Origin: a candidate division LCP-89 bacterium
GTDB taxonomy: Bacteria; Electryoneota; B3-LCP
Reading direction: 5' to 3'
Assembly (NCBI GenBank): GCA_025774555.1
Contig: JALGVT010000003.1
Location: 72,654-136,653, forward strand
Length of the DNA stretch: 64,000 bases
Shown here one piece after another: positions 7,680 to 61,247 of the stretch. Each line of letters opens with the position of its first letter. Positions within the stretch are counted from its first letter, which is position 1. The notes beneath the pieces were generated by a model that was not told where the DNA came from, ran no database searches, and was given only the letters and a program-made list of their open reading frames with translations. Position numbers and translations under genes: made by a program.

Positions 7680-7681
7680 GA

Positions 7682-18339: not shown

Positions 18340-19965
18340 GTGAATGTAAGCAAAGTATTAACCGATCTTCTGCATCAGGCGCTGGATGATCTGAAATACC
18401 CTGATACTGAGATCACTCTGGAAAGCCCGCCCGATCCCAAAATGGGAGACCGGTCTTGTACGATTGCTTTAGCGTTGGCAAAGCAGTTGAAACGTGCTCC
18501 GCGTCAGATTGCTGAGGAGATAAGGGACGCTATAAAAACCGATGGGTCTATCATTGAGAGAATTGAGATCGCTGGAGCGGGGTATCTGAATTTCTTCTGT
18601 TCTGAGGAAGTCTGGCTGCAGTTGTTGCAGAGCATATTATCCACCGGACCTGATTACGGTTCTTCCGATACAGGTAAAAATGAGAAACGGCTCTTTGAAT
18701 TTGTTTCAGCAAATCCCACCGGTCCGATGAATATCGTCAGCGCGAGAGCAGCAGCGTTGGGCGATTCAATGGTGAGACTTCAGAAAAAGGTCGGTTTTAG
18801 CGCCGACAGCGAATTCTATGTCAATGATTCCGGAAAGCAGATCCGTCTGCTGGGAGAATCAGTGCAGGCTCGAGCCAGGGAGTTGCAGGGAGAGACCGCT
18901 GAAATCCCGGATGGAGGGTATCACGGAGCTTATATAAAAGATCTGGCGAAGCGTGCCCTTGATGAATCGGCTGCGAATTGCCTTGAAGTCTCTGCTGAAT
19001 TGACCGGGAGATGGGCTGCAGATAAGTTAAGGGAAGGGCAGGAAGCGACTCTTGAGGAATACGGCGTCAAGTTTGATCGCTGGTTCCGTGAAAGTGAACT
19101 CTATACCGATAACAGTCATCAGAAGACGTTGGAGCGTCTTAAAGCGAATGGACATATCTACGAAAAGGACGGCGCGTTATTCTTCCGGACGACCGAATTC
19201 GGCGATGACGAAGATCGTGTGGTGATCACCTCGGATGGCAGACCGACCTATTTTCTTCCGGATATTGCCTATCACCTGAATAAAGCTGAGCGCGGTTATG
19301 TCAGGGTTTTCGATCTATTAGGACCAGATCATCACGGGCACGGCAAGAGGATGCAGGCGGCTATGAAGGCGGCTGGAATGCCGGATGATTTCCTTGAGAT
19401 AATCATAGTACAGCAGGTTAACCTGCTGCGAGGCGGCGAACCGGTTAAAATGTCTAAGAGAACCGGTGAGATGGTTACTATGAAAGAGCTGCTCGATGAG
19501 GTGGGAGCCGATGCTGCGAGGCAGATATTCCTGTCCAGAAAGTGGTCATCGCATCTCGATTTCGACATTGAATCCGCCAAAGACAGGTCTGAGAAAAGCC
19601 CCGTATTCTACGTGCAATACGCTCATGCCAGAATCTGTTCGATCTTCCGTAAAGCCGGGGATAGGGGAGATGCGAGTTTAAACGACCTGGAAAAACTCAA
19701 AGCCGCGGAAGAGAGAAATCTGATGCGTTCATTATCTCTCTTCCCTGATGTGGTCGAGAGTGCGGCTCTGTATCTGGCGCCGCATCGCCTGAATACCTAT
19801 CTAGGTGATTTAGCGACGGCATTTCATCATTTCTATCATGAATGCCGGGTGATTTCAGAGGATGAAGGATTAACCCGCGCCAGGCTGGCGTTATGCCGCG
19901 CGGTGCAGATAGCGCTTATAGAGGGTTTACGATTAATGGGGATGACTGCCCCTGAAAGGATGTAG
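18340..19965 (+). CDS. argS: Arginine--tRNA ligase (GTG start)
   Basis: FVSANPTGPMNIVSARAAALGD (class I HIGH region variant) and VKMSKRTG (KMSK motif). Confidence 0.9.
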   Translation: MNVSKVLTDLLHQALDDLKYPDTEITLESPPDPKMGDRSCTIALALAKQLKRAPRQIAEEIRDAIKTDGSIIERIEIAGAGYLNFFCSEEVWLQLLQSILSTGPDYGSSDTGKNEKRLFEFVSANPTGPMNIVSARAAALGDSMVRLQKKVGFSADSEFYVNDSGKQIRLLGESVQARARELQGETAEIPDGGYHGAYIKDLAKRALDESAANCLEVSAELTGRWAADKLREGQEATLEEYGVKFDRWFRESELYTDNSHQKTLERLKANGHIYEKDGALFFRTTEFGDDEDRVVITSDGRPTYFLPDIAYHLNKAERGYVRVFDLLGPDHHGHGKRMQAAMKAAGMPDDFLEIIIVQQVNLLRGGEPVKMSKRTGEMVTMKELLDEVGADAARQIFLSRKWSSHLDFDIESAKDRSEKSPVFYVQYAHARICSIFRKAGDRGDASLNDLEKLKAAEERNLMRSLSLFPDVVESAALYLAPHRLNTYLGDLATAFHHFYHECRVISEDEGLTRARLALCRAVQIALIEGLRLMGMTAPERM

Positions 19966-32988: not shown

Positions 32989-34392
32989 ATGCTTCAAAAA
33001 CAGCGCACGATTCAGAGCTCTATGTCTTGTTCAGGAATCGGACTTCACACAGGCGCCCCCTGCTCATTGACTTTCCATCCTGCTCCAGTCGGGCATGGCA
33101 TTCAGTTCAAACGGCTTGACATCCCCAATTCCGTTCCGATTCCAGCTATAATCGACAACGTCGTCGATATTTCCCGGGGAACGATAATCGGGATGAATGA
33201 CATTAAAATCTACACCGTAGAGCACGTACTCGCCGCCCTGGCTGGACTCGAGATCGACAACGTATTGATCGAATTGACCGCCAGCGAACCGCCCGTCTGC
33301 GATGGTTCGGCTCTCCCCTTTATTGAAGTGCTTCAAAAAGCGGGATTCGAGGAGCAGGATGCTCCGAAGGAATACCTCGAGATCGATCAGACCATTATCT
33401 ATCACAACGAAGAGAAGGGCATTGACCTCGTCGTGGTGCCCGCGCCAGCATTCCGCATTACTTACATGATTGATTATAAGAATCCGGCGCTGGGGACACA
33501 GTACACTTCCTTATATGATCTTCAGGAGGAGTTTGTAAAAGATTTCGCTGCGGCGCGCACTTTCTGTTTTCTCTCCGAAGTGGAAATGTTGAAGGATAAC
33601 GATCTCATCAAAGGTGGCGGCATCGACAATGCCGTGGTCTTCGTGGACAGGGAAGTCGATTCATCTGAACTGGAACGGCTCAAGTCGCTTTTTGCCATGA
33701 CTTCTGACGTTATTGTCGGAGCTAATGGGATTCTCAATGGTCGTGAGTTGCGATACTATAACGAGCCTGTGCGGCATAAAACGCTCGATCTAATCGGTGA
33801 TCTTGCTCTTCTCGGATTCCCGATTCAGGGACATGTTTTAGCTGCGCGCGCCGGACACGCCGCGCACGTTGAGTTAGTGCGGATGCTACGGAAAGAATAC
33901 GAAAAGAAGAAATTAATCCGCGCCTATCGCGGTAAAACCTCCGCTGATGTAATTTTCGATTCTGCGGCGATTGCCAGAATTCTGCCGCATCGCTATCCCT
34001 TCCTGCTGGTCGATAAAATCGTCGATCTGTCTCCCGGCGAAAAAGTATGCGGCGTCAAGAGCGTTACCATTAACGAGCCGTTTTTCCAGGGGCATTTCCC
34101 CGGATACCCGATTATGCCAGGTGTGCTGGTCATCGAAGCTCTGGGTCAAGCAGGAGGCGTTTTATTGCTGAACTCAGTCGAGAATCCTGAGGGCAAACTG
34201 GTTTTCTTCACAGGGATGGATAAGGTGCGATTCAGAAAACCGGTTGTGCCGGGAGATCAACTCTATCTTAAGGTTGAACTGGATTTCTTTCGTCGGGGGA
34301 TATGCAAAATGCGCGGCAAAGCGCTGGTTAACGACGTTGTTGTGGCTGAAGCGGAAATGACTGCGGTTGTGCGCGACAAGGAGGCTTCATGA
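32989..34392 (+). CDS. lpxC/fabZ: Bifunctional UDP-3-O-acyl-GlcNAc deacetylase / 3-hydroxyacyl-ACP dehydratase (LpxC-FabZ fusion)
   Basis: N-terminal half is LpxC (SGIGLHTGAPCSLTFHPA...HAAHVELVRML). C-terminal half is FabZ (HRYPFLLVDKIVDL...GHFPGYPIMPGVLVIEALGQAGG). Confidence 0.9.
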   Translation: MLQKQRTIQSSMSCSGIGLHTGAPCSLTFHPAPVGHGIQFKRLDIPNSVPIPAIIDNVVDISRGTIIGMNDIKIYTVEHVLAALAGLEIDNVLIELTASEPPVCDGSALPFIEVLQKAGFEEQDAPKEYLEIDQTIIYHNEEKGIDLVVVPAPAFRITYMIDYKNPALGTQYTSLYDLQEEFVKDFAAARTFCFLSEVEMLKDNDLIKGGGIDNAVVFVDREVDSSELERLKSLFAMTSDVIVGANGILNGRELRYYNEPVRHKTLDLIGDLALLGFPIQGHVLAARAGHAAHVELVRMLRKEYEKKKLIRAYRGKTSADVIFDSAAIARILPHRYPFLLVDKIVDLSPGEKVCGVKSVTINEPFFQGHFPGYPIMPGVLVIEALGQAGGVLLLNSVENPEGKLVFFTGMDKVRFRKPVVPGDQLYLKVELDFFRRGICKMRGKALVNDVVVAEAEMTAVVRDKEAS

Positions 34393-43630: not shown

Positions 43631-45652
43631 TTATTTTACCAGTATCATTTTCTGAACGAAAGAAAAATCCTCCGCTTGGATGCAGTAGAGATAGATACCA
43701 GAAGCTAGATAAGTTGCGTCAAATGTTACCCCGTGCAATCCAGCATCACGCCAGCCGCTGACTAATTCTGCGACCATTCTTCCCGACACATCATATACTG
43801 ACAGATTTACATGACTGTTTTCCGCCAACAGATAGCTGATGGTGGTGGTTGGATTAAACGGATTGGGATAGGCATGCATTAGCATGTTTTTATCTGGTAC
43901 ACTATCACTAAAAATCTTGTCTGCCGCCTCGCTGTCACTCATTCCGGTTCTCTCAGTGACTTCGTAGGTTATCAAGTTGTTTTCGAACAGGAATTGTGAT
44001 TGATGCCACCCAATCACCCGCTTCGGTGAATTGCTGGATACATCACTAGTCAGAACCAACCAGATTTTCGCACCATAACCCCAGCTATAGTATCCCAAAC
44101 CATCGAAGGGAAGATCACCCGTTTCAAGGGAATTCTCAATGTGCAGTGTGCCATCAGTTTCCGGCGTACCAGAGCCCAAAACGAGCAGGTTCCAACCGGG
44201 CCAGGGATCAGGATAGTAGATCAAGCTGTAGTTTTTTGCAGGATTCAAACCTATTCCATCGAAGATATAGCTGAATTCTGGACCAGTCGAATTGAATATC
44301 ATTTCACCTGCAATCTCACTTGTCTGGATTGGCTGCCATGTAGATGGGTGCTTCTTATAAAGCATTAATGATTCACCCACAATAGTGAACTCGACATTTT
44401 TATTCACCATTGCGCCCGCCCAATAACCTCCCAATCCAGATGAATGGAAGCTCTCTTCGGTTAAAAGCAGTTGAACGTTATATTGTCCAAGCGGTAATAA
44501 TGTATTACCGGGCGTTGGTCTGTCGTTTTGCCATTCAGCGTAGATACCTTCGGTATATGGGCCTCCTGTCATGTCATAGGCAATGCTGGACGAGCTGGTG
44601 CTGAAGGTATGCCATTTCGTATCAGAGTCATTTGATCCAGGGGAACGTTGACTCTCCTTCCATAGCACGTGATAGCTGCTGTTCAGGTTAAATTCGAGGT
44701 CTGCGTTACCATTATCATCGGTAGTGAAGAAATCGAACAGCAGGTACCCTTCGAAGATGTAGGTTGGATCACTAAGACGAGGAGTGATGTAGGCATCAAC
44801 TCGGTTTCCTGATCCTGGAGCTTGTTCAAACCATCTTCCAGCATAACCAATGCTCTGGTTTGACCAGTCATCACCCCCGGTAACCCATTGCGGATCATTT
44901 TCCGGTTTTCCAACCAATTTCACTTGATAGGAGAAATTTGGCTTTAACCCGACTGCTGACATAGAACCGCAGAACGTAGTGCCGACATCGTGGTATGTAA
45001 CCGTTACATTAGGATGATATTTCTTCTCATAGGTCACTAATTCAACTTCCAGAAGAAACTGCGATACATTCCATCCTGTCATACAACAGGCAGTTTGATT
45101 GACATAGTTGGAAGGCACCAACCAGATTTTTGCACCCGGATTCGGATCACCTGCTGCCGGAAGATCACCGGTATCTACACTACCTTCGAGATGCAGATCC
45201 CCTATGGTGGTGGGAGTTCCTGATCCCAGAACGATGAGGCCATTTCCTGGCCAGGGATCAGGATAGTAGATCAACAGGTATTCAACTATGTTAAGCCCCG
45301 AAGCATCAAATTCATATTCAAACGTCGGTCCTGTTGGGCTGTAGATGAGAGTTCCCGATGCAGCGCCTGGCACCGGCTGCCAGGTGGATGGATCTTTTAT
45401 ACTCAATTGTATAGACCGCTCTGGCTCGATATAATAATCGAACCGATCCTGATAATCACTGGCATAGAGATTATTGGCAACGTCCATCATCCTATAGGTA
45501 GTTGTGGACCATGTGGTAACATTGCCTGCTGCTTCCAGTGATTGTGTTACTTCACCTGTAAAGCTGACATTTACAATTACCATACATGTAATTAGACAGA
45601 CTAATAATAGATATGCTTGTCGCATATTAACCTCCCTTTGTAAAGTTAGCAA
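43631..45652 (-). CDS. Secreted protein with T9SS C-terminal sorting domain; internal tandem duplication
   Basis: Signal peptide; C-terminal ...YPNPFNPTTTISYLL...LSVYDVSGRMVAELV...GIYLYCIQAEDFSFVQKMILVK is a T9SS C-terminal domain. Repeated module ...LIYYPDPWPG(N/W)xL(I/L)VLGSGTP...GDLP occurs twice. Confidence 0.8.
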   Translation of the reverse strand: MLTLQREVNMRQAYLLLVCLITCMVIVNVSFTGEVTQSLEAAGNVTTWSTTTYRMMDVANNLYASDYQDRFDYYIEPERSIQLSIKDPSTWQPVPGAASGTLIYSPTGPTFEYEFDASGLNIVEYLLIYYPDPWPGNGLIVLGSGTPTTIGDLHLEGSVDTGDLPAAGDPNPGAKIWLVPSNYVNQTACCMTGWNVSQFLLEVELVTYEKKYHPNVTVTYHDVGTTFCGSMSAVGLKPNFSYQVKLVGKPENDPQWVTGGDDWSNQSIGYAGRWFEQAPGSGNRVDAYITPRLSDPTYIFEGYLLFDFFTTDDNGNADLEFNLNSSYHVLWKESQRSPGSNDSDTKWHTFSTSSSSIAYDMTGGPYTEGIYAEWQNDRPTPGNTLLPLGQYNVQLLLTEESFHSSGLGGYWAGAMVNKNVEFTIVGESLMLYKKHPSTWQPIQTSEIAGEMIFNSTGPEFSYIFDGIGLNPAKNYSLIYYPDPWPGWNLLVLGSGTPETDGTLHIENSLETGDLPFDGLGYYSWGYGAKIWLVLTSDVSSNSPKRVIGWHQSQFLFENNLITYEVTERTGMSDSEAADKIFSDSVPDKNMLMHAYPNPFNPTTTISYLLAENSHVNLSVYDVSGRMVAELVSGWRDAGLHGVTFDATYLASGIYLYCIQAEDFSFVQKMILVK

Positions 45653-45846: not shown

Positions 45847-47967
45847 CTACTTCATAAGCACAATCTTTCGAGTGATTGAATTGCCTTCAGCTTTCAAGCA
45901 AATGACATAGATACCTGATGCTAGCCACGATCCATTAAATGTTAATTCGTATGTTCCTGCATCTCGCCAGCCGTTGACCAGCACTGCGACCTGCCGTCCG
46001 AATGTGTTGTATACTGTCAGGCTTGTAAAGCTGTAAGTTGCAAGTTGGTAACTGATAGTCGTCAACGGGTTGAAAGGATTAGGATGTATTCCTGTTAATC
46101 TGAATTCCCCTGGTGCATCAGGCTGATTTGGCATAATCCCTGAGTTTTGATTCGATACGGTAATTATGAATTCGACTGGCTCTTCATAATCGATCGAGAT
46201 CAATTGGGTTGCCAGTAAATCGTAATCTATCCCCTGAATAATTGCAAATGCTTCATACTCGTCAGGCAGATTTTCGAGGATATCGGGAAATTCGATACAA
46301 ACCTCACCTGGTTGGGATGCTTCCAGCATCCCTTGCCACAGTTCAACCGATTCCGGTTCCACCGGGGAGCGATAATCGTTGCAGAATGAATCGCCAACAG
46401 GCGCTGACCATTCCGGATGTTCGAATGTGATTCGTACATAATCACCCGATGGGGCTATAGGTGGTACCGGGAGATCATACAGAGAGTCGAATCCATTTGT
46501 AGCATCCGGTTTGACGCCCAGGCGGGTCAATCGGTTCTGAATAGCGCCCTGTTCGACGAGAATCCCGATTTGCCAATCATCTTCGTCACCCTGATCAACA
46601 ATGGAATATTCTTTTGATGTGCCATGGTCATAGGGTGGATTCGTGATCATATCCAGGTTTTCCACCAGAGCTTGCAACCAATATCCCTCCCATGGAGTTA
46701 ATGTAGTCGCAGTCATGTAACTTCCTGTTCCGTTATTGAAGCTGTAGAATGCCGCAGAAATCCAGCCTGTAGTGACAGCATTCACAAAAGTATGTGTTGT
46801 AATTCCGTCAGTGAACAGCAGATCATCACGAGAAACGGGTGCTGCCATGGCGCAACCCACCATGTTCCAATTCAGAGAGAGTGGAATAGTGACCGGATTT
46901 ACAGCCGTTAATCCTGTAACGTCAATCAGGGCGCTGTTTTCCAGCGCAAGCCAATAACCGTATCCGTGATCAACGTTTTGAACAAGCCCATAACCACCTG
47001 CCTGGGAGTAATCATAGACGAAATAGGCTCCTGTGACATCGTCACCGTAAATGTCTGCGATGGCGGTACTTGGCGGAATCAGGGGAATACTGGTTAAATG
47101 CCAGCCGACGTTGAAGCTACTCTCCATATACCCTGATGCGATTGTGAACGGACTGCTCATGATTGTTTCACCTGAGTTACCCGCCCAATCCTGTGCCTCT
47201 ATTTTAATGAGTGCTTCAGTGCTGATGGTCCCCGGAGTTGTCCACAAATAACTCGTCGTTTCACCAGTGATATTATCAATAAGTGTCCATGATGTACCAT
47301 TATTAAGCGAATAATACAGGTCTGCAGACCGGATTGGTGAAACGTCTGTGTATGACCAGGTGACGGTATATCCTGTATTTGTCAGTAAGGTGATTCCCGG
47401 AGTGGGATACGTTATACTGATGGACGGTGGAGTCCCATCCCCAAGCCGTAAATTGAAGGTGTGAACGGCGAGAGAGGCAGTATAATTATAGGTATTACTT
47501 TCTCTGATGTTTTGGTAGGTTCCGGTATCACTATCGTAGAGCACCACACCGTATGATCCCGGGTAGGAAGGTCCGATGGTAAAAGTTAGATCCACAGTCT
47601 CACTATTTTGATCGGTATCGACCTCAAAATCATAGATTTTCACCGCGTTGGTCAGGTCGTCGTTTCCGTTTCTTACATCCACCATGAAATTATCGCCGAA
47701 TATGCTGCTCCACTCCGGATGGGGAAAGTAGGTTGTTAAGTATTCAGAAACAGGTGGGGCGGGTTCAGGAACATCTATCCCTGAATCGTATCCATCCGTA
47801 GCTGTTGCATCAAGGGCTGCGTAGTTACCATCGTCAGTGAGGACAGTCTCGAATCCGGTATCGATCATGCTGGTTATTAGCACGCTGTTTTCGTATTGTG
47901 CGTGAGCAGAATACTGGAAAACACTCAGGACAATTCCTATACTGAAAAATCGGATAGCAAGTCTCAT
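45847..47967 (-). CDS. Secreted protein with T9SS C-terminal sorting domain; shares a roughly 300-aa module with the neighbouring GH5 enzyme
   Basis: Signal peptide; C-terminal HPNPFNPLTTISYQL...LTVYNTFGRQVAVLV...GIYVICLKAEGNSITRKIVLMK. An internal HPEWSAPVGD module and an SIPLIP...GDDVTGAYFVYDYSQ...GYWLALEN module are both also present in the 48040..51666 protein. Confidence 0.8.
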   Translation of the reverse strand: MRLAIRFFSIGIVLSVFQYSAHAQYENSVLITSMIDTGFETVLTDDGNYAALDATATDGYDSGIDVPEPAPPVSEYLTTYFPHPEWSSIFGDNFMVDVRNGNDDLTNAVKIYDFEVDTDQNSETVDLTFTIGPSYPGSYGVVLYDSDTGTYQNIRESNTYNYTASLAVHTFNLRLGDGTPPSISITYPTPGITLLTNTGYTVTWSYTDVSPIRSADLYYSLNNGTSWTLIDNITGETTSYLWTTPGTISTEALIKIEAQDWAGNSGETIMSSPFTIASGYMESSFNVGWHLTSIPLIPPSTAIADIYGDDVTGAYFVYDYSQAGGYGLVQNVDHGYGYWLALENSALIDVTGLTAVNPVTIPLSLNWNMVGCAMAAPVSRDDLLFTDGITTHTFVNAVTTGWISAAFYSFNNGTGSYMTATTLTPWEGYWLQALVENLDMITNPPYDHGTSKEYSIVDQGDEDDWQIGILVEQGAIQNRLTRLGVKPDATNGFDSLYDLPVPPIAPSGDYVRITFEHPEWSAPVGDSFCNDYRSPVEPESVELWQGMLEASQPGEVCIEFPDILENLPDEYEAFAIIQGIDYDLLATQLISIDYEEPVEFIITVSNQNSGIMPNQPDAPGEFRLTGIHPNPFNPLTTISYQLATYSFTSLTVYNTFGRQVAVLVNGWRDAGTYELTFNGSWLASGIYVICLKAEGNSITRKIVLMK

Positions 47968-48039: not shown

Positions 48040-51000
48040 TCATTCCCAGGTAACTCTGTAAAAATAGACGACGTTCAGAAGTGCATAGAGGTCTAAGTAT
48101 TGCGAAACTGCAGTACTATCTATAGGTGATATCCCTGTTGTTTCGAAGTAGGGATCGGTAGAGCGGTAGATGTAATAGACTGATGCACCTGCCATATCAC
48201 TCCAATCTAACAAGACGTCTAAGTCCGACAATGATAAAGTCAGGTCATCAATCGCCTGAATATCGTTTGAAACGATGATATCGATAACATATGGATCCGT
48301 ATAGTTGAAAGTAAACTGAGGCGTCTGCAACAGGTCAACGGTACCACCAAAATGTTCGACACGCGCAGAATACCCAGCAGGCAGAATCGATAGAATATTA
48401 TCGAAATCAACCGTTACCATTCCCTCTTCAGATGCTTCGATAATGCCTTCCCAGGTTTTTACGGATGAAGAATCAAGCGGCGCGCGGGTATCAGTGCTGA
48501 AAATATCTCCCACAGGTGCGAGCCATTCGGGATGATAGAAGACCAGGCGAATATAATCTCCACTGGGTGGAGTCGGTGGCGCAGACATATCGTACCATAC
48601 GTCATATTCATCTGTGGCATTATAATGGACTCCGATCCCCGGAAGATAATCAGACAGATTTCCAAGCGTGACCTCAATCTGAACGAACCAATCATCCTCT
48701 TCATCAGAATTATCTGCTATCATGGGCAATGGTATTTTTTCGGATACTGGAGAGTAGGTCAGCATTTGTAAGCCTGACGATAAAGTCTGCAACCAGTAAC
48801 CTCCCCAGGAATGCAGAGAATCGCTCGATTGGTAGCTCCCCATGGAATTATTATATTGGTACACCGCTGGTGAAATCCATCCGCTATTGACGGCATCGTT
48901 GAATGATTGCGTTATTATACCATTTGTGAAATGAAGAGACTGTAGTAAGATCGGATCAGAATAGGCCGCGCCTACAATATTCCAGTTTAAATCGAGTGGT
49001 AGGAGTGTTGAGTCTCCGGGAACAGTACCCGTCAGATCGACAGCGGCTCCGTTTTCCAGGGCAAGCCAGTAGCCAGCTCCATGCTCAACCTCATCAATCA
49101 GTTCATAACCATATATTTGCGAATATTCATAGACATAGTAAGCACCGGTGATATCATCACCGAAGATGCTGTCGATATTGGCGTATTCCGGGATCAACGG
49201 AATACTCATCATATGCCATCCGGAGCTGAAAACGTGCTCAACATAGACGGAGATGCTGTTCAACAGGTTCATAGAATCAGCATGAGCCTCCAATATCGAA
49301 ATTGTTGAAGTGTGTGCTGGATAGTAAACTCCAAAACCATCGTAATCAGGATAATCATCATGGTATAATATCCAGAGATTGGATCCCGCTGAAGAGTTAC
49401 CTGCTTGCGCCCCAGCAAGGATGACATCCAACCAGCTCTGGAAATACTGGTTGCGAGTAGATATTGGCTGTGATTTGCCGTATTCTTCTAAAATCAGCGG
49501 TTTTCCCAGAAGGGCATCGGTGTCCGCGATATGATCATTTGTCCAGTTAATAGAGGTTGTTAAATTCATCCCCCACCAGTCCGGCCAAGCATGATAACAA
49601 GCAAAGTCAATAGCTTCAGGTTGGTGATTCCGGATAAAGTCAACGCCTTTACTTTCCATCCAGCCGCTGGGATTGTGAGCTGGTCCTGTTGGCCCATAAA
49701 AGCCTTCCGAGCCTGTGGTTACCATATGCAGCGAATCAATTGACTTGATATAAACTGCGGTCTCTTCAATCCAGGTCTGGAGGATATCACCACCCGCATC
49801 GGATGTGCATTCAGGTTCATTTGCCAGTTCCCAGGCAAAAACGGTTGGATCCTCCTTATAGACACGTCCATTGAAGACGTTGACGCGATTAAGAACAGTA
49901 TTTACGTGATTTTCATACCACTCGATACAGAGTTCATCCTGGTAGAAATCATCATGCTCACCTGAAGTTAGCAGGGTCTTCATCTGATCGGAGTGAGATG
50001 ATATTATCGCAATCGTACTCACATCGGAATCATAAACGCTATACCAGCCTTGATGTTCGTGTGGTGGATCTCCAATCCAGGGATCGCCAATGCTCCAGTA
50101 ACTTCCATAGGGTAAAACCGGTCTCCCTTCACCAGCCCAGGACCAGATATTCGTCCCTGCGGCCGGCTGTCCAGAAGATGCCGAAGTATACACTTCATCA
50201 AACATAGCATTGAAGAAAGTATTTCGCCATGTTGTTGACGAACTTGGATCGTAGCTCTCGCTGTCGCGTGCAAGTCCGAATTCTTCAAGCACCATCGGTT
50301 TACCCAGAGAAACAGCTTCAGCTTCGTGATTGTTGAAGTACGTTATTGCAGATGCTTCCGAGCTTGCGTATGTACCGCCCGGATTTGCAGGATCGTACCA
50401 GCCCCAGTTTTGTGGCCAGATATGAATGGTGGTATAGTCGATATCAGGACCGTTGTGGTTCTGGATAAAGTCTAAACCATTCCATGAAGGCCAGGGGGTG
50501 TCACCTTCGCAGCCAGTAGTAACGAGATGATTTGAATCCAAGGATTTGATATAAGCGGCACAATTATCAATCCAGATGTTGAACGCTGCAGCGTTGTTGT
50601 TGAAGCCTCGCGGTTCATTGCACAACTCCCATGACATGATAGCAGGTTCATCACTATATGTTGTGCTCGTATATGGATTTGTGCGGTTGATGATGAAGGC
50701 AATGTGATCCTCAAAGTCCTGCATCGCCCCTGCATTTGAATAGAAGTCCGAGGCGTAATCCTGGAAAGCATCCCAGCTTCCTCCCGGCTCGGGAGGCGGA
50801 TATGGAATTGGACCGCCACCATTCCAATTCACATATTGAGCCATACCTCCCGACCATTGCCAGAAGTTATTCAAGCACATTACCGCTCGAATACCTCGCT
50901 GTTTCATGGCGTAAATAAGGTAATCCAAACCATCGAGAACGTCGGGATCATAAACGCCCGGTGAGGTCTGAAAAGAAGGCACCATACGCCAGGGCTCGGT

Positions 51001-51666
51001 GTCAGGACCTTCCGAACCTGTCATGATGCGCAGATTCGTTATTCCAATCGCTTTAAGAGAATCCAGTTCACGATTAAGTCTATCTCTATCACCTCCGGAT
51101 CCGTTGGAAGCGAGGTTTAATCCGTACCAGTAGTTGGCGCCGACGTAGTAATACTTCCTGCCACCGATTTCGAAATGAGTGCCATTCACTTCGACGAAGC
51201 CGGAAGTCCCCAGAGTATAAGCTGAATCCGCCCAATCGACATACTGATTCATGCCGCCGTAATCGTCCCAATTGTTTATGAACGGCAGGATAAGCCTGAT
51301 ACCTTCTAGATCAGCTTTATGGAGCACATAATCCAGTCCCTGGAAGACATATTCCTGGTAAATTCCCGGGCTGGTCTGCAGAGAGTTCCACTGTGTCACA
51401 CCATCATTAAAAGCCCAGGTGCGCAGAACAGACATATCCATTGCCGCTATCTCTTCGATGACCTCATCCACCGCATAGCGAAGTCCCATATCAGCGGCAT
51501 AGACCATCTGGTAGTAATTATTGGCGCCGGCGTAGTAAAAGGGATTTCCATTCAACGTGAAATGGTTACCATCGCGCGTGGCGATTCCAATATTCTCCGC
51601 GTTAGCAGAGAAAATGAAGACCATAATACTGGGTACCAGGATGAGGTGCTGGATAAATCTGGTCAT
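48040..51666 (-). CDS. Multi-domain family 5 glycoside hydrolase (beta-mannanase-like) with a second GH5 domain apparently inserted into the first
   Basis: Signal peptide. GH5 mannanase strand motifs appear in order: VLRTWAFNDG, ILPFINNWDDYGG...YVDWA. A complete second GH5 domain follows (YYYVGANYWY, NLRIMTGSEG, MCLNNFWQWSGG, WELCNEPR, TTGCEG, IHIWPQNWG, LEEFG). Then come the remaining strands of the first barrel (FAWELANEPEC, VTTGSEGFYG, YHAWPDWWG, LILEEYGKS). A roughly 440-aa C-terminal region shares modules with the 706-aa neighbour. Confidence 0.8.
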   Translation of the reverse strand: MTRFIQHLILVPSIMVFIFSANAENIGIATRDGNHFTLNGNPFYYAGANNYYQMVYAADMGLRYAVDEVIEEIAAMDMSVLRTWAFNDGVTQWNSLQTSPGIYQEYVFQGLDYVLHKADLEGIRLILPFINNWDDYGGMNQYVDWADSAYTLGTSGFVEVNGTHFEIGGRKYYYVGANYWYGLNLASNGSGGDRDRLNRELDSLKAIGITNLRIMTGSEGPDTEPWRMVPSFQTSPGVYDPDVLDGLDYLIYAMKQRGIRAVMCLNNFWQWSGGMAQYVNWNGGGPIPYPPPEPGGSWDAFQDYASDFYSNAGAMQDFEDHIAFIINRTNPYTSTTYSDEPAIMSWELCNEPRGFNNNAAAFNIWIDNCAAYIKSLDSNHLVTTGCEGDTPWPSWNGLDFIQNHNGPDIDYTTIHIWPQNWGWYDPANPGGTYASSEASAITYFNNHEAEAVSLGKPMVLEEFGLARDSESYDPSSSTTWRNTFFNAMFDEVYTSASSGQPAAGTNIWSWAGEGRPVLPYGSYWSIGDPWIGDPPHEHQGWYSVYDSDVSTIAIISSHSDQMKTLLTSGEHDDFYQDELCIEWYENHVNTVLNRVNVFNGRVYKEDPTVFAWELANEPECTSDAGGDILQTWIEETAVYIKSIDSLHMVTTGSEGFYGPTGPAHNPSGWMESKGVDFIRNHQPEAIDFACYHAWPDWWGMNLTTSINWTNDHIADTDALLGKPLILEEYGKSQPISTRNQYFQSWLDVILAGAQAGNSSAGSNLWILYHDDYPDYDGFGVYYPAHTSTISILEAHADSMNLLNSISVYVEHVFSSGWHMMSIPLIPEYANIDSIFGDDITGAYYVYEYSQIYGYELIDEVEHGAGYWLALENGAAVDLTGTVPGDSTLLPLDLNWNIVGAAYSDPILLQSLHFTNGIITQSFNDAVNSGWISPAVYQYNNSMGSYQSSDSLHSWGGYWLQTLSSGLQMLTYSPVSEKIPLPMIADNSDEEDDWFVQIEVTLGNLSDYLPGIGVHYNATDEYDVWYDMSAPPTPPSGDYIRLVFYHPEWLAPVGDIFSTDTRAPLDSSSVKTWEGIIEASEEGMVTVDFDNILSILPAGYSARVEHFGGTVDLLQTPQFTFNYTDPYVIDIIVSNDIQAIDDLTLSLSDLDVLLDWSDMAGASVYYIYRSTDPYFETTGISPIDSTAVSQYLDLYALLNVVYFYRVTWE

Positions 51667-51694: not shown

Positions 51695-53341
51695 TTATAG
51701 TTGATCGAACTCGCTTGGATCGATCAGAAGGTGGGGTGTGATCAATACGACCACTTCGGTTTTCTCGATTTCGGTAGTAGTATTTCCGAAAAGGTAGCCT
51801 AAAATGGGGATGTCTCCCAGGAAGGGGATGCGGTTTCTCGTCTCTCGCTTGTTTTCGGATACCAGACCACCGATACCAATGGTCTGTCCATTGTCAATCT
51901 GCACCCTGGTCTCCACTGATCTCACGCTGGTTACCGGCAGATCTGTGGCGCCGGATCCAGTGACGTCGCTGACCTCAATCACGATATCTGCCGTGATGTT
52001 GGCTTCACTGCCGACATAAGGCGTGATCATCAGCATGATGCCGGTAGCTATTTTTTCCAGGGTCACATAGCTGTAGGCAGAAGATCCCTGGAGCAGTGAA
52101 TAATAGGCTTCCTTCCCAATGCGAATTGCGGCTTCCTGTCCGTCAGAGGTAGTGATGCGGGGGTTAGCGCGGATGTTTGCCTGATCTTTTATGGCTAATG
52201 CCTGAAGTGCTAAACGCAGATCGAAGACCATACCTTGGTGGTGATCTCCGGTTCTGAACATTTCGCTTAAGAAGAAGGATGTGTCGCTGTAAGAGGGCAG
52301 CAGTTTTGACAGTTTGAACGCATCATTCCCTTTCGTGCCTGACCAATCCCATTCCAAACCGAGCGAACGCCTGGCTTCGTCGCCCATCTCCACGACAAGT
52401 GCTTCTATCAATACCTGCTGAGGGGGGTGGTCAACAGCAGCTAACTCCTCCTTGAAACGGTCGATGATTGCAGGGGGAGCAGATATAACCAGCGTATTGG
52501 TTTTTTCGTTCACCTTAATAAAATTATTATAATAGTCGGGTATGAGTTTAGGAACTTCAGCCGCCGGAAGGTGCTTGGGCTTGACCGCCTCTGTCTGCGC
52601 CAGTAGAGGGAAAGAGGGATTGTCAGCCACCGGCGCGCCGACGATGTAATAGTTTTCAATTTTACGGTAACTATAACCCATCGGCGACAGGATCAGACTG
52701 AGCGCCTGTTCGAGGGGTACGTCGATTATATCAAGCGTTATGTAACCTCTCACCATGGCATCCGGAATGATGGCAATCTCTGTCTGTGCGGAAAGATCCA
52801 TCAGCGCCTGGCGGATATCCGTTTCATAGAAGGAATTGGACACCAGCGGTCCGGAGTGATTTGAATCGGTCATAGAAGGCTCTTCACCGGAATCATTCTC
52901 CTGCCCCTGGAGCTTCTTCAACGCGGCTACACCCTGCTCTGCGCTGCTCTCCCAACTGGCGAGTAGAGGATAATTGGCTTCCACCCGTGGAAAATACTGC
53001 CTCAGCAGGTTGAAGCACCGCGCTGCTTTAACCGGGTCTCCCAGCGCTATATTACACCGCCCCAGCAGATACAGCACTTCGTCCATCCGGTAGTACGATG
53101 GCTCCTGCTGTCCGGTGGATCGCAACAGGTCCGCGGCATCCACGTAATCGCCGGAATCCATCAAGGTGGTGGCTCTCTCGATTATTCCGCTGATACCATC
53201 AGGATATATGCTCTCCATTTCCTGCGGCAGCAGGGGGGGTGACTGCGTGCAAGAAAGGATAAGTAATCCGAGTGATAGCGCGCAACAAACGGGAACCCAT
53301 GAGCGTATAATTTTATAGAAGCGGTTGTAGGGACGTATCAT
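51695..53341 (-). CDS. Secretin (GspD/PilQ family) with N-terminal lipoprotein TPR-like (pilotin-like) region
   Basis: Lipobox LILSCTQS, then a TPR-like segment and secretin N-domain (FYETDIRQALMDLSAQTEIAIIPDAMVRG). C-terminal secretin motif IPFLGDIPILGYLFGNTTTEIEKTEVVVLITPHLL. Confidence 0.8.
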   Translation of the reverse strand: MIRPYNRFYKIIRSWVPVCCALSLGLLILSCTQSPPLLPQEMESIYPDGISGIIERATTLMDSGDYVDAADLLRSTGQQEPSYYRMDEVLYLLGRCNIALGDPVKAARCFNLLRQYFPRVEANYPLLASWESSAEQGVAALKKLQGQENDSGEEPSMTDSNHSGPLVSNSFYETDIRQALMDLSAQTEIAIIPDAMVRGYITLDIIDVPLEQALSLILSPMGYSYRKIENYYIVGAPVADNPSFPLLAQTEAVKPKHLPAAEVPKLIPDYYNNFIKVNEKTNTLVISAPPAIIDRFKEELAAVDHPPQQVLIEALVVEMGDEARRSLGLEWDWSGTKGNDAFKLSKLLPSYSDTSFFLSEMFRTGDHHQGMVFDLRLALQALAIKDQANIRANPRITTSDGQEAAIRIGKEAYYSLLQGSSAYSYVTLEKIATGIMLMITPYVGSEANITADIVIEVSDVTGSGATDLPVTSVRSVETRVQIDNGQTIGIGGLVSENKRETRNRIPFLGDIPILGYLFGNTTTEIEKTEVVVLITPHLLIDPSEFDQL

Positions 53342-53412
53342 ATATCTTCTCGATTTTTATCTACTTCAGACTATGCTCTTTGACATAGTCCCTAAAAACC
53401 CGTTAATGTACT

Positions 53413-55038
53413 CTATTTCAATCCTTTAGGTGTTGTCGTAGTGCTGGTAAAGCTTACTTCGGAGCGCTCCCAGACCGGCTTTTTGCCTAAAGTGACAAAT
53501 TCGGCTTTTACAAGGAAACCACCCTGATCCAATGGCGGCAAGGTCATGCGGAACTCGCGTGAAGATCCCGGCAGAATAATTTCCTCCTGATCTTTGCCCA
53601 GATTCATGAAAGCGATCACCTGTCCATTGGTTCGTTCCAATTGCAATTTGCCCTTGAAGGTCGCGACTTTTCCGCCGCTGTTATAAATTGGCACTACTGC
53701 GGTCGTAGGGTTGGCACCCTCTACGGGGTAAATCAGATTGGGTTTGCTGACCTCCAGCTTTGACGGAGGAGATTTGGGATTCTTGGCTACCAGCAGAACC
53801 CCAAATTCCGCACCGCTCACGCGCCCACCAACTGTCAATGGACCAGTGGCGTTGATGCGTACTGCTTTCACGAATGCGCCAAAACCGGTGGTATCGCGTG
53901 GCACCTTGACCTGAGCTTTGATAGAAGCGGTACGTTTTGATTCTATAGATACAGTTTCCGGGGAGATACTTATCCAATCATTGCTCTCCTGAATCTTTGC
54001 AGGGAATGTAAGGGATCCATCCACTTCCATTTTCACATCGGAGACATAAGCTCGAATTTCAGTGGTACGCTCGTCTCTGTTCTGAATCCTGATGGGAACA
54101 GTGCGCACCGCGCCGGGTGTGAGTGTTAGTTCAACCATTTGGGGATTGACCGACATATCCAGATCGAACTCGGACCTGGTCAGGATTTTACTGGAAACGC
54201 TCTTGCCTGTCAAAGAAGCTGGAACTTCGAATTCCAGATTGCTGACTGAACGTATCGCACCGTTCAAAAGCAAACGTACCTCAGCTCTGTATTTACCAGG
54301 ACTTGGAACTTCCGTGAGAGGACAAATAAGATCAACCTCATAACCAGGATATATTTCAAACGGTTTACCCCCTGGCCTGAAGGGAATTGGAACTTTAGTA
54401 GGAAATATACTTGTAGGTCCATAGAGGAGCATATCCCCAGTAACATCCAATCTCCAAACGCCTGGATTTGAGGCTAAAAGACTTATGCAATAATTATCCT
54501 TTCCTGTCACTGGAACAAGTTTCATATCCTTAACTTCTATATTCGTTTTGCCTCTTCCCAGTACCATCGCCTCAATTTTTATAGAAAGAGCAGGTCGTAC
54601 TAAAACGGCAATATTAGCAGATGGTCGCTCAGGCTGAACCTGTATTATAATATAAGCATAATAGTGACCTGGATTGGCAGTGGGATAGGTTATCGTAATC
54701 GGGATGTCCATTGATCCACCAGCCGGGATTTCTAACTCTTCGGCTACAGATATCCAAGACGCGCAGGATTGATATCCAAGGCCTGCATCTACGACCTGAA
54801 TAGTTCCTTCGTTACTCTGGTTGAGATCCCTGACTTCTATAGTATATCTTGATGTTGCTGTTGTGTTGGTTGCAGCCAATATGAAACTGGAGTTGACTCT
54901 TTGCCCTGGATTGCCTTGCAACTGTATATGTGCAGGACTTATCCCAAATCCTCTACGACTTTCTTCTTGTGTCTGTGCTTCAGAAAGTGAAAGCGCAAAA
55001 AATATGGATGTGAAAATTAGGATAGTACTTTTTACCAT
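53413..55038 (-). CDS. Hypothetical secreted 541-aa beta-rich protein (predicted multiple Ig-like/beta-sandwich repeats)
   Basis: Signal peptide MVKSTILIFTSIFFALSLSEAQTQ; recurring ...ISP...I.L...G...V... strand-like patterns; no catalytic motif. Transcribed just upstream of the secretin gene. Confidence 0.5.
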   Translation of the reverse strand: MVKSTILIFTSIFFALSLSEAQTQEESRRGFGISPAHIQLQGNPGQRVNSSFILAATNTTATSRYTIEVRDLNQSNEGTIQVVDAGLGYQSCASWISVAEELEIPAGGSMDIPITITYPTANPGHYYAYIIIQVQPERPSANIAVLVRPALSIKIEAMVLGRGKTNIEVKDMKLVPVTGKDNYCISLLASNPGVWRLDVTGDMLLYGPTSIFPTKVPIPFRPGGKPFEIYPGYEVDLICPLTEVPSPGKYRAEVRLLLNGAIRSVSNLEFEVPASLTGKSVSSKILTRSEFDLDMSVNPQMVELTLTPGAVRTVPIRIQNRDERTTEIRAYVSDVKMEVDGSLTFPAKIQESNDWISISPETVSIESKRTASIKAQVKVPRDTTGFGAFVKAVRINATGPLTVGGRVSGAEFGVLLVAKNPKSPPSKLEVSKPNLIYPVEGANPTTAVVPIYNSGGKVATFKGKLQLERTNGQVIAFMNLGKDQEEIILPGSSREFRMTLPPLDQGGFLVKAEFVTLGKKPVWERSEVSFTSTTTTPKGLK

Positions 55039-55116
55039 TTGACTTTCCCTTCAATTATAACCATTGTATGCCTGGGAGATAGAAAGCTCCCAGACATACC
55101 TTATTAGGCCAGACCT

Positions 55117-55911
55117 TTAGGGCACACTAAGAGTTACATTAAGATTAGCGGTGTAAACGCCCGCCGGATCAGACATACCATTTCTTTCTACCCTACCATG
55201 GAATGTGAAGGTACCCCTAACATATTGGTTCATTGCTAGAGTGTACGTAGGAGAGCCGGCCATGACCCATGCTTTCTGCGTTGGGAATTCGTTAAAAGGA
55301 TTAACCAGACCTGGCCACACAGCACTGGGAGATTCGAGACCAAAGTCAGTGCCCGCAACATTGGAAAGGTACTGACCGTCATTCCACCCAAACGGGGGTA
55401 CGCCTGCAGTCCAACCACCCATATATGTTGTTCCGTTTGCTATGAAGCCGCCCACATCCCACCACGCTGCTGCTGCAGTGAAGTATGATGGGAGAGTAAA
55501 AGACCCATTAGTAAGATCTCCGGACGGTGTAATTTGAAGGTTCATTCCACCATTGCTGGTTACATAGATATCTGCCCAGTCTCCGGACTCCCAGTACTTT
55601 GCTGATGGGGCTGGAGTCGTGGTGGGATCACCAGACCATGGATCGGTTGCATACGTTTTGAGGCCTGGATCATTGCCACTACTATAAGCGCTGCCCTCAA
55701 TTGCGGTTGTGTTCCACCAGTCATATCCTGGTCCCTGTTCCGGAGCAACTTGACCATTTGGTCCGAAAACGATGTTCATGTCTTGCCACTGGACATCAGA
55801 CCACACCGGTATGTCTAGCGTGACAACTACAGTGCCGGTGTAGGTGATAGGCTGTGCAGACACAATACCTGCAAACGCCAGGACAACAAGAATTATTAGT
55901 GCTTTTCGCAT
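55117..55911 (-). CDS. Hypothetical secreted 264-aa Gly/Trp/Thr-rich protein
   Basis: Signal peptidase I-type signal (AGIVSA|QP); Trp- and Gly-rich (8 Trp, many GxxG); no class III (prepilin) signal. Confidence 0.5.
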   Translation of the reverse strand: MRKALIILVVLAFAGIVSAQPITYTGTVVVTLDIPVWSDVQWQDMNIVFGPNGQVAPEQGPGYDWWNTTAIEGSAYSSGNDPGLKTYATDPWSGDPTTTPAPSAKYWESGDWADIYVTSNGGMNLQITPSGDLTNGSFTLPSYFTAAAAWWDVGGFIANGTTYMGGWTAGVPPFGWNDGQYLSNVAGTDFGLESPSAVWPGLVNPFNEFPTQKAWVMAGSPTYTLAMNQYVRGTFTFHGRVERNGMSDPAGVYTANLNVTLSVP

Positions 55912-59041: not shown

Positions 59042-59956
59042 TCACAATGCTTCGATTTTTTCCTCCAGTTGGTTCCAAAGCTGCTTAATGTCTTCGGCAA
59101 CTCCGTTGTTTGAATATTCCACTACGCTGATTCCCGCAATCTGCGCTTTTGTGAAGGCGCTATCGTAACGAATTTTGCCGATAACTTTCACTCCGTCAGC
59201 TAAAGCTTCATTTTCGATTTCGTTTGATATTTCCTGGTTTAAATCGCATTTGTTAATGCAGACGACCATGGGGATACTGAAGTGGCGCGTTAATTCGGCG
59301 ATACGCTTCAAATCATGCCGCCCGGCGACCGTTGGTTCGGTAACGGCTAGAACGAGATCAGCTCCAGTAAGGGAAGCTATGACGGGACAACCCACTCCCG
59401 GTGAACCATCGATGAAAAGATAGTCGATACCGGTCTCCTCGGCTAATTTCTTCGCCTCGTTTCGCACCAGAGTTACCAGTTTTCCAGAATTTTCTTCAGC
59501 TATCCCCAGACGGGCGTGAGCCATAGGTCCGAAGTGGGTATCTGAGCTGAACAGTTCTCCACAAATCGGAGTTTCCATCTCGATAGCTTTCTCGGGACAG
59601 AAAAAGGAGCATACTCCGCACCCCTCGCAGGCAATTTTATCTATTTCGTATTCGCAGTTGTTCGCTTCGATAGCGGGATCAAGCTTTTTTACGGCGTCAA
59701 AGCGGCACAGGTCATAGCATATTCCGCATGACGTGCATATTTCGGGATCTATCTTTGCCTTGTATCCAGCGCGAAAATCCTCATGATGGAGGATTTTCGG
59801 CTTCATAATGAGGTGTAAATCAGCCGCGTCCACATCGCAGTCAGCCACCACAGCATTATGCGCTAAAGCAGCAAGCGAAGCTACGATGCTGGTTTTTCCG
59901 GTGCCTCCTTTGCCGCTGATGATAACTATTTCTTTCATTTTACTGTTTTGCAGCAT
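59042..59956 (-). CDS. MinD/ParA-superfamily P-loop ATPase with inserted 2x[4Fe-4S] ferredoxin module (COG1149-type)
   Basis: Deviant Walker A ISGKGGTGKTS; two CxxCxxCxxxC(P) motifs (CTSCGICYDLC and CEGCGVCSFFCP) inserted in the ATPase fold. Confidence 0.8.
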   Translation of the reverse strand: MLQNSKMKEIVIISGKGGTGKTSIVASLAALAHNAVVADCDVDAADLHLIMKPKILHHEDFRAGYKAKIDPEICTSCGICYDLCRFDAVKKLDPAIEANNCEYEIDKIACEGCGVCSFFCPEKAIEMETPICGELFSSDTHFGPMAHARLGIAEENSGKLVTLVRNEAKKLAEETGIDYLFIDGSPGVGCPVIASLTGADLVLAVTEPTVAGRHDLKRIAELTRHFSIPMVVCINKCDLNQEISNEIENEALADGVKVIGKIRYDSAFTKAQIAGISVVEYSNNGVAEDIKQLWNQLEEKIEAL

Positions 59957-60377: not shown

Positions 60378-61247
60378 TTATCGTATAGTCTCTTCTTGTA
60401 TTGGCTTGAATCTCATTTTGATAGAGTCCACCAAGCGCTTGAATAACAGTTCGTATTGCGGCAGTGCGTCTACTAGAAGCTCCCCTCGTGAGTAACTTTC
60501 CGCAATCTTACGGTCATCAGGAATTTCGGCGATCAGATCAATATCTTCTTTCCGGCAGTAATCGTGTACCCGGTCGTCGCCTGAACCAGCGCGGTTCAGA
60601 AGAACAGAATATCGTAAATTCAGTTTCCTAACCATTTCGACAGCCAATTTCAAGTCATTCAATCCAAAAGGAGTCGGCTCGGTAACTAAGAGGACATAAT
60701 CTGAATCTTTTACCACCTCAACAACAGGACATGAGGTCCCGGGTGGAGCGTCGATGACTGCATGCTCATTTGCTGGAATGGCACGCTTTACTTCACGAAT
60801 GAGAGGAGGGGACATAGCTTCGCCGATGCGCAGTTTCCCACTGACGAAATTAAGATCGCCGGCGCTGCCGGTCTCTACAATCCCAATATTACGAGGGATT
60901 TCCTTTATGGCTTTAGGTTCACAAACCAAACTGCATCCACCGCAGCTATGGCATAATTCCGGGAAAGTAAGCGGCTTACCAGCTAAGACCACAATAGCGC
61001 TGAAATTGCAGATTTCTCCGCACTTGCCGCAGCCGTCGCATAAATCAAAATTCACCTCGGGGACCAGCGCTCCAATTTGTTCTGTTTTTTCTATCGAGGG
61101 CTTAAGGAAAAGGTGACCATTCGGTTCTTCGACGTCGCAATCTGCATAGGTTACCTTTTCCTCCAAGCGCGACCAGGCGACGGCTAAGTTAGCGGAAACA
61201 GTAGTCTTACCAGTCCCGCCTTTTCCACTGGCGATGGCAACTCTCAT
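60378..61247 (-). CDS. Second MinD/ParA-superfamily ATPase with ferredoxin insertion (COG1149-type)
   Basis: IASGKGGTGKTT P-loop; CDGCGKCGEIC and CHSCGGCSLVCEP 4Fe-4S motifs. Confidence 0.8.
   Translation of the reverse strand: MRVAIASGKGGTGKTTVSANLAVAWSRLEEKVTYADCDVEEPNGHLFLKPSIEKTEQIGALVPEVNFDLCDGCGKCGEICNFSAIVVLAGKPLTFPELCHSCGGCSLVCEPKAIKEIPRNIGIVETGSAGDLNFVSGKLRIGEAMSPPLIREVKRAIPANEHAVIDAPPGTSCPVVEVVKDSDYVLLVTEPTPFGLNDLKLAVEMVRKLNLRYSVLLNRAGSGDDRVHDYCRKEDIDLIAEIPDDRKIAESYSRGELLVDALPQYELLFKRLVDSIKMRFKPIQEETIR

Follow-up and report, generated by a model that had tools for sequence, protein, structure and literature searches.

Does the reverse-strand open reading frame at positions 48040-51666 of the window (the whole 64,000-nucleotide stretch of DNA analyzed here, from a candidate division LCP-89 bacterium) encode one GH5 enzyme with another GH5 enzyme inside it, as the order of its motifs had suggested, or is it a decayed tandem array or an assembly error? 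The ORF is single and unbroken, with a stop codon at 48040-48042, and its 1208-aa product is predicted to be secreted. A complete GH5 barrel (the guest) is nested in the beta3-alpha3 loop of a second, likewise complete GH5 barrel (the host), to which it is joined by 7-residue linkers; both barrels probably belong to subfamily GH5_7.

Domain layout and evidence for nesting

The protein begins with a predicted signal peptide (aa 1-23, MTRFIQHLILVPSIMVFIFSANA; 51598..51666 (-)), recognized in the sequence by its basic N-region, hydrophobic core and A-x-A site, with cleavage after ANA; homologues carry equivalent leaders. The N-terminal part of the host barrel follows (aa 24-148; 51223..51597 (-)), corresponding to residues 9 to ~121 of 8gf3. 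It comprises the N-terminal hairpin, beta1-beta3 and a short helix after NNWDDYGG, includes R82 and N131-N132-W133, and is 58-81% identical to its counterparts in nested and uninterrupted relatives. The N-linker AYTLGTS (aa 149-155; 51202..51222 (-)) then leads into the guest barrel, a predicted CmMan5A-type exo-beta-mannosidase module that matches 1uuq (aa 156-563; 49978..51201 (-)). After the C-linker TLLTSGE (aa 564-570; 49957..49977 (-)), the host barrel resumes (aa 571-812; 49231..49956 (-); 8gf3 residues 123-353) with the HDDFY helix, alpha3, beta4-beta8 and alpha8. In a comparison of junctions, which delimited both linkers, the N-linker had no counterpart in uninterrupted hosts or stand-alone inner enzymes, and the C-linker was similar to the post-catalytic linker of the stand-alone inner enzymes. 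The C-terminal region (aa 816-1208; 48043..49221 (-)) matched no Pfam family; it shares 46% identity over 324 aa with the neighboring ORF 45847-47967 and is 51-62% conserved in four other nested proteins (P0002-P0005).

All motifs quoted in the original prediction are present in the predicted order: YYAGANNYY, VLRTWAF (with R82), INNWDDYGG (129-138) and YVDW (to W145) before the insert; NLRIMTG (211-217), WELCNEPR (346-353) and VLEEFG (459-464) in the guest; and WELANEPE (612-619), CYHAWPDWW (690-698) and ILEEYG (725-730) after it. The junctions had been placed at about 51190 and 49960; they fall at 51222/51223 (host to N-linker), 51201/51202 (N-linker to guest) and 49956/49957 (end of the C-linker, where the host resumes). 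Insertion had been placed in the loop between strand 3 and the strand bearing the NEP motif; more precisely, the site is in the beta3-alpha3 loop, ahead of helix alpha3 rather than directly before the NEP strand.

With phmmer, the inner segment matched 411 residues of 1uuq (residues 20-430 of 440; E = 6e-104). The outer segments, once spliced, matched 8gf3 in one stretch (residues 9-353 of 365; E = 1.3e-87) with a gap of 2 residues at the splice. Judged by these alignments, the homology of the inner and the spliced outer segments lies far beyond chance. The two outer pieces complement each other exactly: where the N-terminal piece stops in uninterrupted relatives, the C-terminal piece starts, and the site is seamless. 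Searched intact against Pfam and NCBIfam, the 1208-aa protein gave nothing significant, and GH5 calls emerged only once the modules were excised or spliced. The excised guest then scored 29.3 bits against the Pfam GH5 family (PF00150; cut-off 23.5), and the spliced host cleared the threshold as one stretch running over the splice.

Relatives place the two parts in their usual settings. The host barrel is contiguous in 117 uninterrupted homologues, and the guest is autonomous in more than 100 stand-alone homologues; the insert starts at the mature N-terminus of the latter and ends within their C-linker. The length of the beta3-alpha3 loop is bimodal, with 12-28 aa in the 117 proteins vs. 428-433 aa in 12, and none between.

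An AlphaFold2 (AF2) model of the 791-residue core, predicted with confidence (pLDDT 87.1, pTM 0.80), puts the insert between host beta3 and alpha3. In trimmed numbering (protein residue = trimmed residue + 24), strands of the N-terminal host part lie at residues 21-25, 56-58 and 100-104, and helices and strands of the C-terminal part at 547-780, with pLDDT mostly above 90; together, these two discontinuous segments are predicted to form a complete (beta/alpha)8 barrel. The guest is also a (beta/alpha)8 barrel, and Foldseek aligned it to 1uuq with a TM score of 0.91 and an rmsd of 2.4 A. For the split host barrel, the sequential alignment used by Foldseek gave no superposition (rmsd about 23 A). 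The input for AF2 was a balanced alignment (A3), the only set that aligned correctly in local trials; a large mixed alignment (A2) was dropped, as MAFFT placed stand-alone hosts onto the paralogous guest barrel.

Two predicted active sites

The guest retains R213, N350, E351, H415, E462 and W508. Its predicted acid/base, E351 (codon 50614-50616 (-)), aligns with E215 of 1uuq, and its predicted nucleophile, E462 (codon 50281-50283 (-)), with E330; the codons of these and of the two host residues were checked. In the host, R82 is joined by N616, E617, H692, E728 and W765 from the C-terminal part, with E617 (codon 49816-49818 (-)) the predicted acid/base and E728 (codon 49483-49485 (-)) the predicted nucleophile. 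Across an alignment of nine nested proteins that are 46-81% identical, neither barrel shows any change in its signature residues (R, N-E, H, E and W), which include the two catalytic pairs. On these alignments, both active sites of the nested protein are predicted to be retained.

The closest solved relatives of both barrels (1rh9, CmMan5A and BlMan5_7) belong to subfamily GH5_7, according to Aspeborg et al. or to a “5_7” in the name. Mannan or glucan had been suggested as the substrate; we retain mannan and not glucan because all of the characterized close relatives are GH5_7 enzymes that act on mannan. The spliced host aligns end to end with the GH5_7 endo-beta-1,4-mannanases BlMan5_7 (8gf3), tomato LeMAN4 (1rh9) and soybean GmMAN19-1 (9m20), with E values for this group of 1.3e-87 to 5e-74 and all signature residues present. 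Those enzymes have a short beta3-alpha3 loop, whereas the host has 422 extra residues there. The guest matches the exo-beta-mannosidase Cellvibrio mixtus Man5A (CmMan5A; PDB 1uuq, 1uz4, 7odj) over its whole length, and Aspeborg et al. include this exo-mannosidase in GH5_7 (PMC3526467). The guest keeps the acid/base and the nucleophile of CmMan5A as well as its long beta8-alpha8 loop, which at about 36 residues is some 20 residues longer in the guest than in the host (about 15). However, CmMan5A is free-standing, while the guest has lost its signal peptide and is joined at either end into the loop of another enzyme.

We consider it likely that the protein couples endo-cleavage of mannan to exo-trimming. 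Our main reading, to which we assign a probability of about 0.78, is a single secreted polypeptide in which a guest exo-beta-mannosidase barrel sits in the loop of a host endo-beta-1,4-mannanase, with both barrels folded and both active. That the host serves as a scaffold or binding platform instead, its endo-mannanase activity lost or greatly changed, would make the protein effectively one exo-enzyme with a GH5-derived binding module. In the AF2 model, the insertion occupies one of the beta-to-alpha loops of the catalytic face, and the adjoining NNW/W145 segment belongs to the conserved region of the active site, both of which speak for such a loss. We nevertheless consider it improbable, since the host signature residues, including E617 and E728, remain invariant in the nine nested proteins down to 46% identity; host-part branches are similar in length to, and no longer than, those of uninterrupted relatives; and GH10 enzymes that carry CBMs in the same loop are still active xylanases (PMC7848910).

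We give equally little credence to a different division of labor, in which both barrels are active and the guest is a mannobiohydrolase, a transglycosylase or an enzyme acting on gluco- or galactomannan oligomers. GH5_7 does mix hydrolases and transglycosylases, and endo- and exo-acting enzymes (PMC3526467), the related RmMan5B (4lyp) is an exo-mannosidase studied for transglycosylation, and the guest loop aligned to 1uuq residues 378-430 was poorly modeled by AF2 (pLDDT <50). Against this, the alignment of the guest to CmMan5A is nearly gapless, with one gap in the region of residues 378-430, and the TM score noted above extends the likeness to the fold.

Recurrence and origin of the insert

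The architecture recurs in about 12 distinct nested proteins encoded on independent contigs from NCBI, JGI, ENA and Logan, which represent at least two candidate phyla (Ca. Eisenbacteria MAGs and an LCP-89-like genome). Given this recurrence, the nested gene is neither a chimeric assembly nor a decayed tandem array. The source contig is metagenome-derived, so that an assembler might have spliced two different GH5 genes; yet the order, site and linkers are repeated in about 12 proteins of 46-81% identity from independent projects, the frame is intact through both junctions, and neither GC nor GC3 shows a break across the nested gene, which effectively refutes a chimera and removes the assembly error that had been named as a possible flaw. 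Decay of a tandem array into a truncated first, an intact second and a truncated third GH5 copy, for which tandem GH5-GH5 fusions in relatives (P0008, P0160 and P0190) offer a precedent, is effectively refuted as well: the first and third pieces together make up exactly one barrel and splice into one PF00150 match rather than giving three independent partial copies, they are predicted by AF2 to pack into one barrel, and they are conserved as much as the intact guest, with invariant catalytic residues.

Other origins were also rejected. The conservation of the architecture across sources and the absence of a compositional break exclude recent foreign acquisition, and an identity of only 30-34% between host and guest barrels excludes recent internal duplication. 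An intein would have a Hint fold, with Cys, Ser or Thr both as its first residue and at the +1 extein position, and would end in His-Asn. Here the insert starts at Ala149, the next host residue, His571, is preceded by Gly-Glu, and the insert is itself a GH5 barrel, which rejects an intein; a mobile element was rejected on the junction residues.

Among relatives, the two module types also occur as separate adjacent genes (loci L006 and L004) and as a tandem fusion (L005) in the same o55117-o53413-secretin slot; further tandem fusions of the two were also seen. The nested insert was probably formed by in-frame capture of the mature catalytic module of a neighboring exo-mannosidase gene, from the residue after the signal-peptide cleavage site to the post-catalytic linker; it would have entered a loop where clan GH-A barrels are known to tolerate insertions.

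The nested proteins have linkers in common, yet their host barrels are polyphyletic: they were monophyletic in 0 of 300 bootstraps, and local support for their polyphyly is strong. Despite this, the insert and its linkers have the look of a single cassette with a common origin. On the evidence of the polyphyletic hosts and the common linkers, we tentatively raise a broader reading, about which we are more doubtful than confident: that the guest with its proline-containing linkers is a cassette of common origin that moved into or out of the same loop in several mannanase lineages across candidate phyla, with the near-invariant bracketing host motifs NNWDDYGGMNQYV and HDDFY as recombination handles. 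The guest-domain tree is poorly resolved at depth and therefore does not decide between one and several origins.

Proposed function and significance

Under our main reading of two active barrels, the host would make internal cuts in mannan chains, and the guest, rigidly attached to it, would trim the new non-reducing ends to mannose, with both synergistic steps held together at a fixed 1:1 stoichiometry. CmMan5A combined with an endo-mannanase showed a synergy of about 1.2-fold (PMC9232400). It is a possibility that the fixed two-tether geometry creates a composite surface, over which chain ends produced by the endo-cleavage would pass straight to the exo site.

Small binding modules have been documented as insertions in the beta3/alpha3 loop of clan GH-A barrels, and tandem fusion is a well-known arrangement of multi-catalytic glycosidases. 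GH10 xylanases with an inserted CBM4/CBM22 (Pm25, Xyn10C-type; PMC7848910) use the same loop of a clan GH-A barrel and keep a functional host, and CBM58 inside domain B of the GH13 enzyme SusG is a comparable insertion of an autonomous module. In the GH10 enzymes and SusG, the insert is a binding module of about 150 aa with no catalytic role, whereas here a complete catalytic barrel, probably from the same GH subfamily, is inserted. Tandem multi-catalytic glycosidases (P0008 and P0121; Caldicellulosiruptor CbCel9B/Man5A, PMC4892530) likewise place two catalytic modules for the same polymer on one polypeptide, and P0008 joins the host and guest module types in the genomic slot that the nested gene occupies. 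However, the tandem enzymes have a sequential topology, free termini and often long linkers, in contrast to the two short tethers of the nested protein. Here, a complete catalytic TIM barrel of 415 residues lies inside a catalytic TIM barrel probably of the same subfamily. In the full-text literature searched, no glycoside hydrolase was described as nested within another glycoside hydrolase, and nothing relevant turned up on Eisenbacteria and mannan.

The protein is also a warning for annotation, as in its intact form it receives no Pfam or NCBIfam call; public names are only “cellulase family” or “mannan endo-1,4-beta-mannosidase.” If confirmed, it would prove by a natural example that a (beta/alpha)8 enzyme can accept an insert that exceeds it in size and still keep its catalytic residues, a point that bears on the engineering of enzymes by domain insertion. 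Polyphyletic hosts with shared linkers make these proteins a tractable case of the spread or loss of an inserted domain. The nested GH5-in-GH5 design is rare, shared by about a dozen uncultured bacteria, and has been kept by selection in different candidate phyla. Together with separate genes and tandem fusions, it would, if confirmed, provide three natural topologies in which to compare the effect of fixed geometry on endo/exo synergy on mannan.

Two GH5 modules in one open frame

An ORF of 1208 codons runs without interruption through window positions 48040-51666 (minus strand), and the GH5 motifs that the original prediction had read in it are all present in the stated order. Its N-terminus (MTRFIQHLILVPSIMVFIFSANA followed by EN) reads by eye as a signal peptide (aa 1-23). 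After it come the N-terminal part of an outer, putative GH5_7 endo-mannanase barrel, the host (aa 24-148, containing R82 and N131-N132-W133); an N-linker, AYTLGTS (aa 149-155); an inner, putative exo-mannosidase barrel, the guest (aa 156-563, containing R213, N350-E351, H415, E462, and W508); a C-linker, TLLTSGE (aa 564-570); and the C-terminal part of the host (aa 571-812, containing N616-E617, H692, E728, and W765).

In a phmmer search of PDB sequences, the whole protein had matches of two kinds. Over residues 153-563 it aligns with the complete exo-mannosidase Man5A of Cellvibrio mixtus, CmMan5A (1uuq residues 20-430 of 440, E 6e-104), and also with Rhizomucor RmMan5B; guest E351 and E462 correspond to the catalytic CmMan5A residues E215 and E330. 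The other matches, to endo-mannanases (8gf3, 9m20, 1rh9, 3pz9, and others), are split in two, and their C-terminal part begins at about chain residue 123. When the host was spliced in silico by taking out aa 149-566, it matched 8gf3 in one stretch (residues 9-353 of 365, E 1.3e-87), with a gap of only 2 residues at the splice. The intact protein received no Pfam or NCBIfam call. Both the excised guest (29.3 bits) and the spliced host (27.4 bits) exceed the PF00150 (GH5) gathering threshold, the host in one stretch that runs across the splice (profile positions 18-256 of 272), a parse equivalent to the predicted split GH5 hit around a contiguous one, which is thereby borne out. With no more than 30-34% identity between them, the two barrels are old paralogues rather than products of a recent duplication.

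AlphaFold2 modelled residues 25-815 from a checked alignment (8 nested, 6 host-type, and 6 guest-type sequences) with a mean pLDDT of 87.1 and a pTM of 0.80. In the predicted secondary structure, the insert follows host beta3 and a short helix and precedes the HDDFY helix and alpha3; the model thus places it in the beta3-alpha3 loop, on the catalytic face of the host. The modelled guest superposes on CmMan5A at TM 0.91 (Foldseek), and PDB chains cover at most 0.48 of the nested model; therefore, no solved structure has this topology.

Clan GH-A barrels with a module inserted at the beta3/alpha3 loop are known from those GH10 xylanases that carry CBM4 or CBM22 there, in a loop termed "quite accommodating" by the authors of that study, and CBM58 sits within GH13 domain B of SusG (PMC7848910). 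Those inserts are non-catalytic modules, whereas the insert here is a GH5 catalytic barrel. Tandem multi-catalytic glycosidases are common. Full-text literature searches found no description of one glycoside hydrolase nested within another, and databases name the nested proteins only generically.

Recurrence and conservation

Among 5.8 billion proteins searched, nine had the order host-N, guest, host-C (P0001-P0007, P0009, and P0010); they are 46-81% identical to the nested protein and originate from NCBI, JGI, ENA, and Logan. Only two of 1.84 billion cluster representatives matched it end to end, and the same scan yielded a further nested protein, P0124. Genome and metagenome scans contributed a 1622-aa nested protein (L001n) in homologous locus L001, plus loci L054/L003. 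Three Candidatus Eisenbacteria MAGs have the architecture, and the window belongs to a different lineage: its arginine-tRNA ligase (18340-19965, plus strand) has its best named relative in candidate division LCP-89, FCB group (65%). The window also contains a fused LpxC-FabZ gene (NF009667, 627 bits; 32989-34392, plus strand); judged by these two genes, it is part of the chromosome of a diderm FCB-group bacterium, on a contig of 151,341 bp. GC and GC3 show no break where host and insert meet. The spacing of the NNWxxYGG and HDDFY anchors falls strictly into two classes among the family members sampled (12-28 residues in 117 uninterrupted proteins, 428-433 in 12 nested), and no other type of insert occurs in the loop. 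Found in independent sources and lineages, the nested architecture is no artefact.

Signature residues of both barrels, including both Glu pairs, are invariant in the alignment of nine nested proteins, as are the junction-flanking motifs. Branches of the host barrel are about as long in nested proteins as in uninterrupted relatives, and within the closest group the catalytic modules are 69-81% identical, vs. 51-62% for the C-terminal region. Both active sites appear to be maintained.

The C-terminal region (393 residues, aa 816-1208; window 48043-49221) matches nothing in Pfam. Over 324 aa it shares 46% identity with the mid-part (46135-47106) of a neighbouring T9SS-tailed ORF (45847-47967). 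It is retained in nested P0002-P0005 (51-62%) and is a possible binding or surface module of an undescribed type. Unlike its neighbours and many relatives, the nested protein lacks a Por_Secre_tail. Host-type relatives also show a second variable site after the nucleophile strand, in the beta7-alpha7 loop. An additional ~85 aa lie there in P0147, and P0319, P0323, P0324, P0336, P0346, and P0348 (77-80% query coverage) may have a similar segment; P0009 and P0010 have a 13-17-aa insertion (alignment columns ~757-773), Pro-rich in P0009.

Origin of the cassette

The inserted block is exactly the mature catalytic module of stand-alone guests, beginning right after their signal-peptide cleavage site and finishing inside their post-catalytic linker (AL-I-P-T-S-A type). 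Its place is identical in all nested proteins, inside the 6-residue loop of uninterrupted hosts (W-SPTASS-HDDFY). Nested proteins of different host clades have in common distinctive N-linkers (SAEAPPSGG, SHGTPPSGD, TQGAAPPAD, ARTSPPLPTD, ARAVPPVGT) and C-linkers (GPTE, GPTA, GAPTQ, GPSA) that are absent from every uninterrupted loop, which argues for a single origin of the cassette (guest plus linkers).

Host and guest trees are distance trees. By neighbour-joining, the host barrels of nested proteins are nevertheless polyphyletic, with nested monophyly in 0/300 replicates. The window's group (P0001-6) has uninterrupted, scar-free P0053/P0061 as its sister (97-100% bootstrap), a grouping that holds in both barrel halves (75% and 99%); P0009 clusters with four uninterrupted enzymes (87.5%), and L001n and P0124 with uninterrupted P0111/P0126 (79%), all four of which have a 267-aa N-terminal extension. 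The guest-domain tree gives no resolution at depth. DNA of the junction-flanking motifs is 78-96% identical over 51 nt across phyla, with unbroken matches as long as 45 nt, and this conservation makes it mechanistically plausible that homologous recombination could exchange or remove the cassette. Repeated precise loss, cassette transfer, or repeated insertion may explain the polyphyletic hosts.

In L001, an Eisenbacteria MAG, the nested gene (5200-10068) is followed 27 bp on by a stand-alone guest gene, P0011 (10095-11717). The two guests are 82% identical, each closer to the other than to any other nested guest, which suggests local duplication or gene conversion.

Gene context and likely function

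Directly upstream of the nested gene are a secretin (PF00263) and two unannotated ORFs, o53413 and o55117 (51695-55911, minus strand). The same order is repeated upstream of a GH5 tandem fusion in locus L005 (861-4877), and a secretin also adjoins GH5 genes in L001 (12291-14330); the linkage of secretin cluster and mannanase is conserved across divergent genomes. A domain of ~190 aa (aa 215-406; window 44435-45010) in T9SS-tailed neighbour ORF 43631-45652 shares 44-50% identity with an extension at the N-terminus of host-type GH5 barrels in loci of Eisenbacteria, Fibrobacteraceae, and Krumholzibacteriota (relatives at L001 5425-5991; L004 3584-4207 and 10547-11116; L006 367-957), and is a candidate novel mannan-associated module. 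Unrelated to the nested GH5 finding, two nearby paralogous MinD/ParA-type P-loop ATPases with 4Fe-4S ferredoxin inserts (59042-59956 and 60378-61247, both minus strand) have CbiA and Fer4 matches.

Subfamily GH5_7 takes in both tomato-type endo-mannanases and exo-acting CmMan5A, whose exo action Aspeborg et al. ascribed to longer loops (PMC3526467). Like CmMan5A, the guest has a long beta8-alpha8 segment (~36 residues vs. ~15 in the host), and the two segments align with one gap. CmMan5A favours longer manno-oligomers and shows ~1.2-fold synergy with an endo-mannanase (PMC9232400). Host-type and guest-type modules are separate adjacent genes in L006 and L004, and in L005, downstream of the homologues of o55117-o53413-secretin, they are fused in tandem, the guest first, through a 6-residue linker; tandem fusions of a more distant kind occur too. 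These adjacent genes and fusions indicate repeated selection for physical coupling of the two activities, of which the nested form is the tightest. The nested protein would be secreted and bifunctional: the host would cut mannan internally and the guest would trim the resulting products to mannose.
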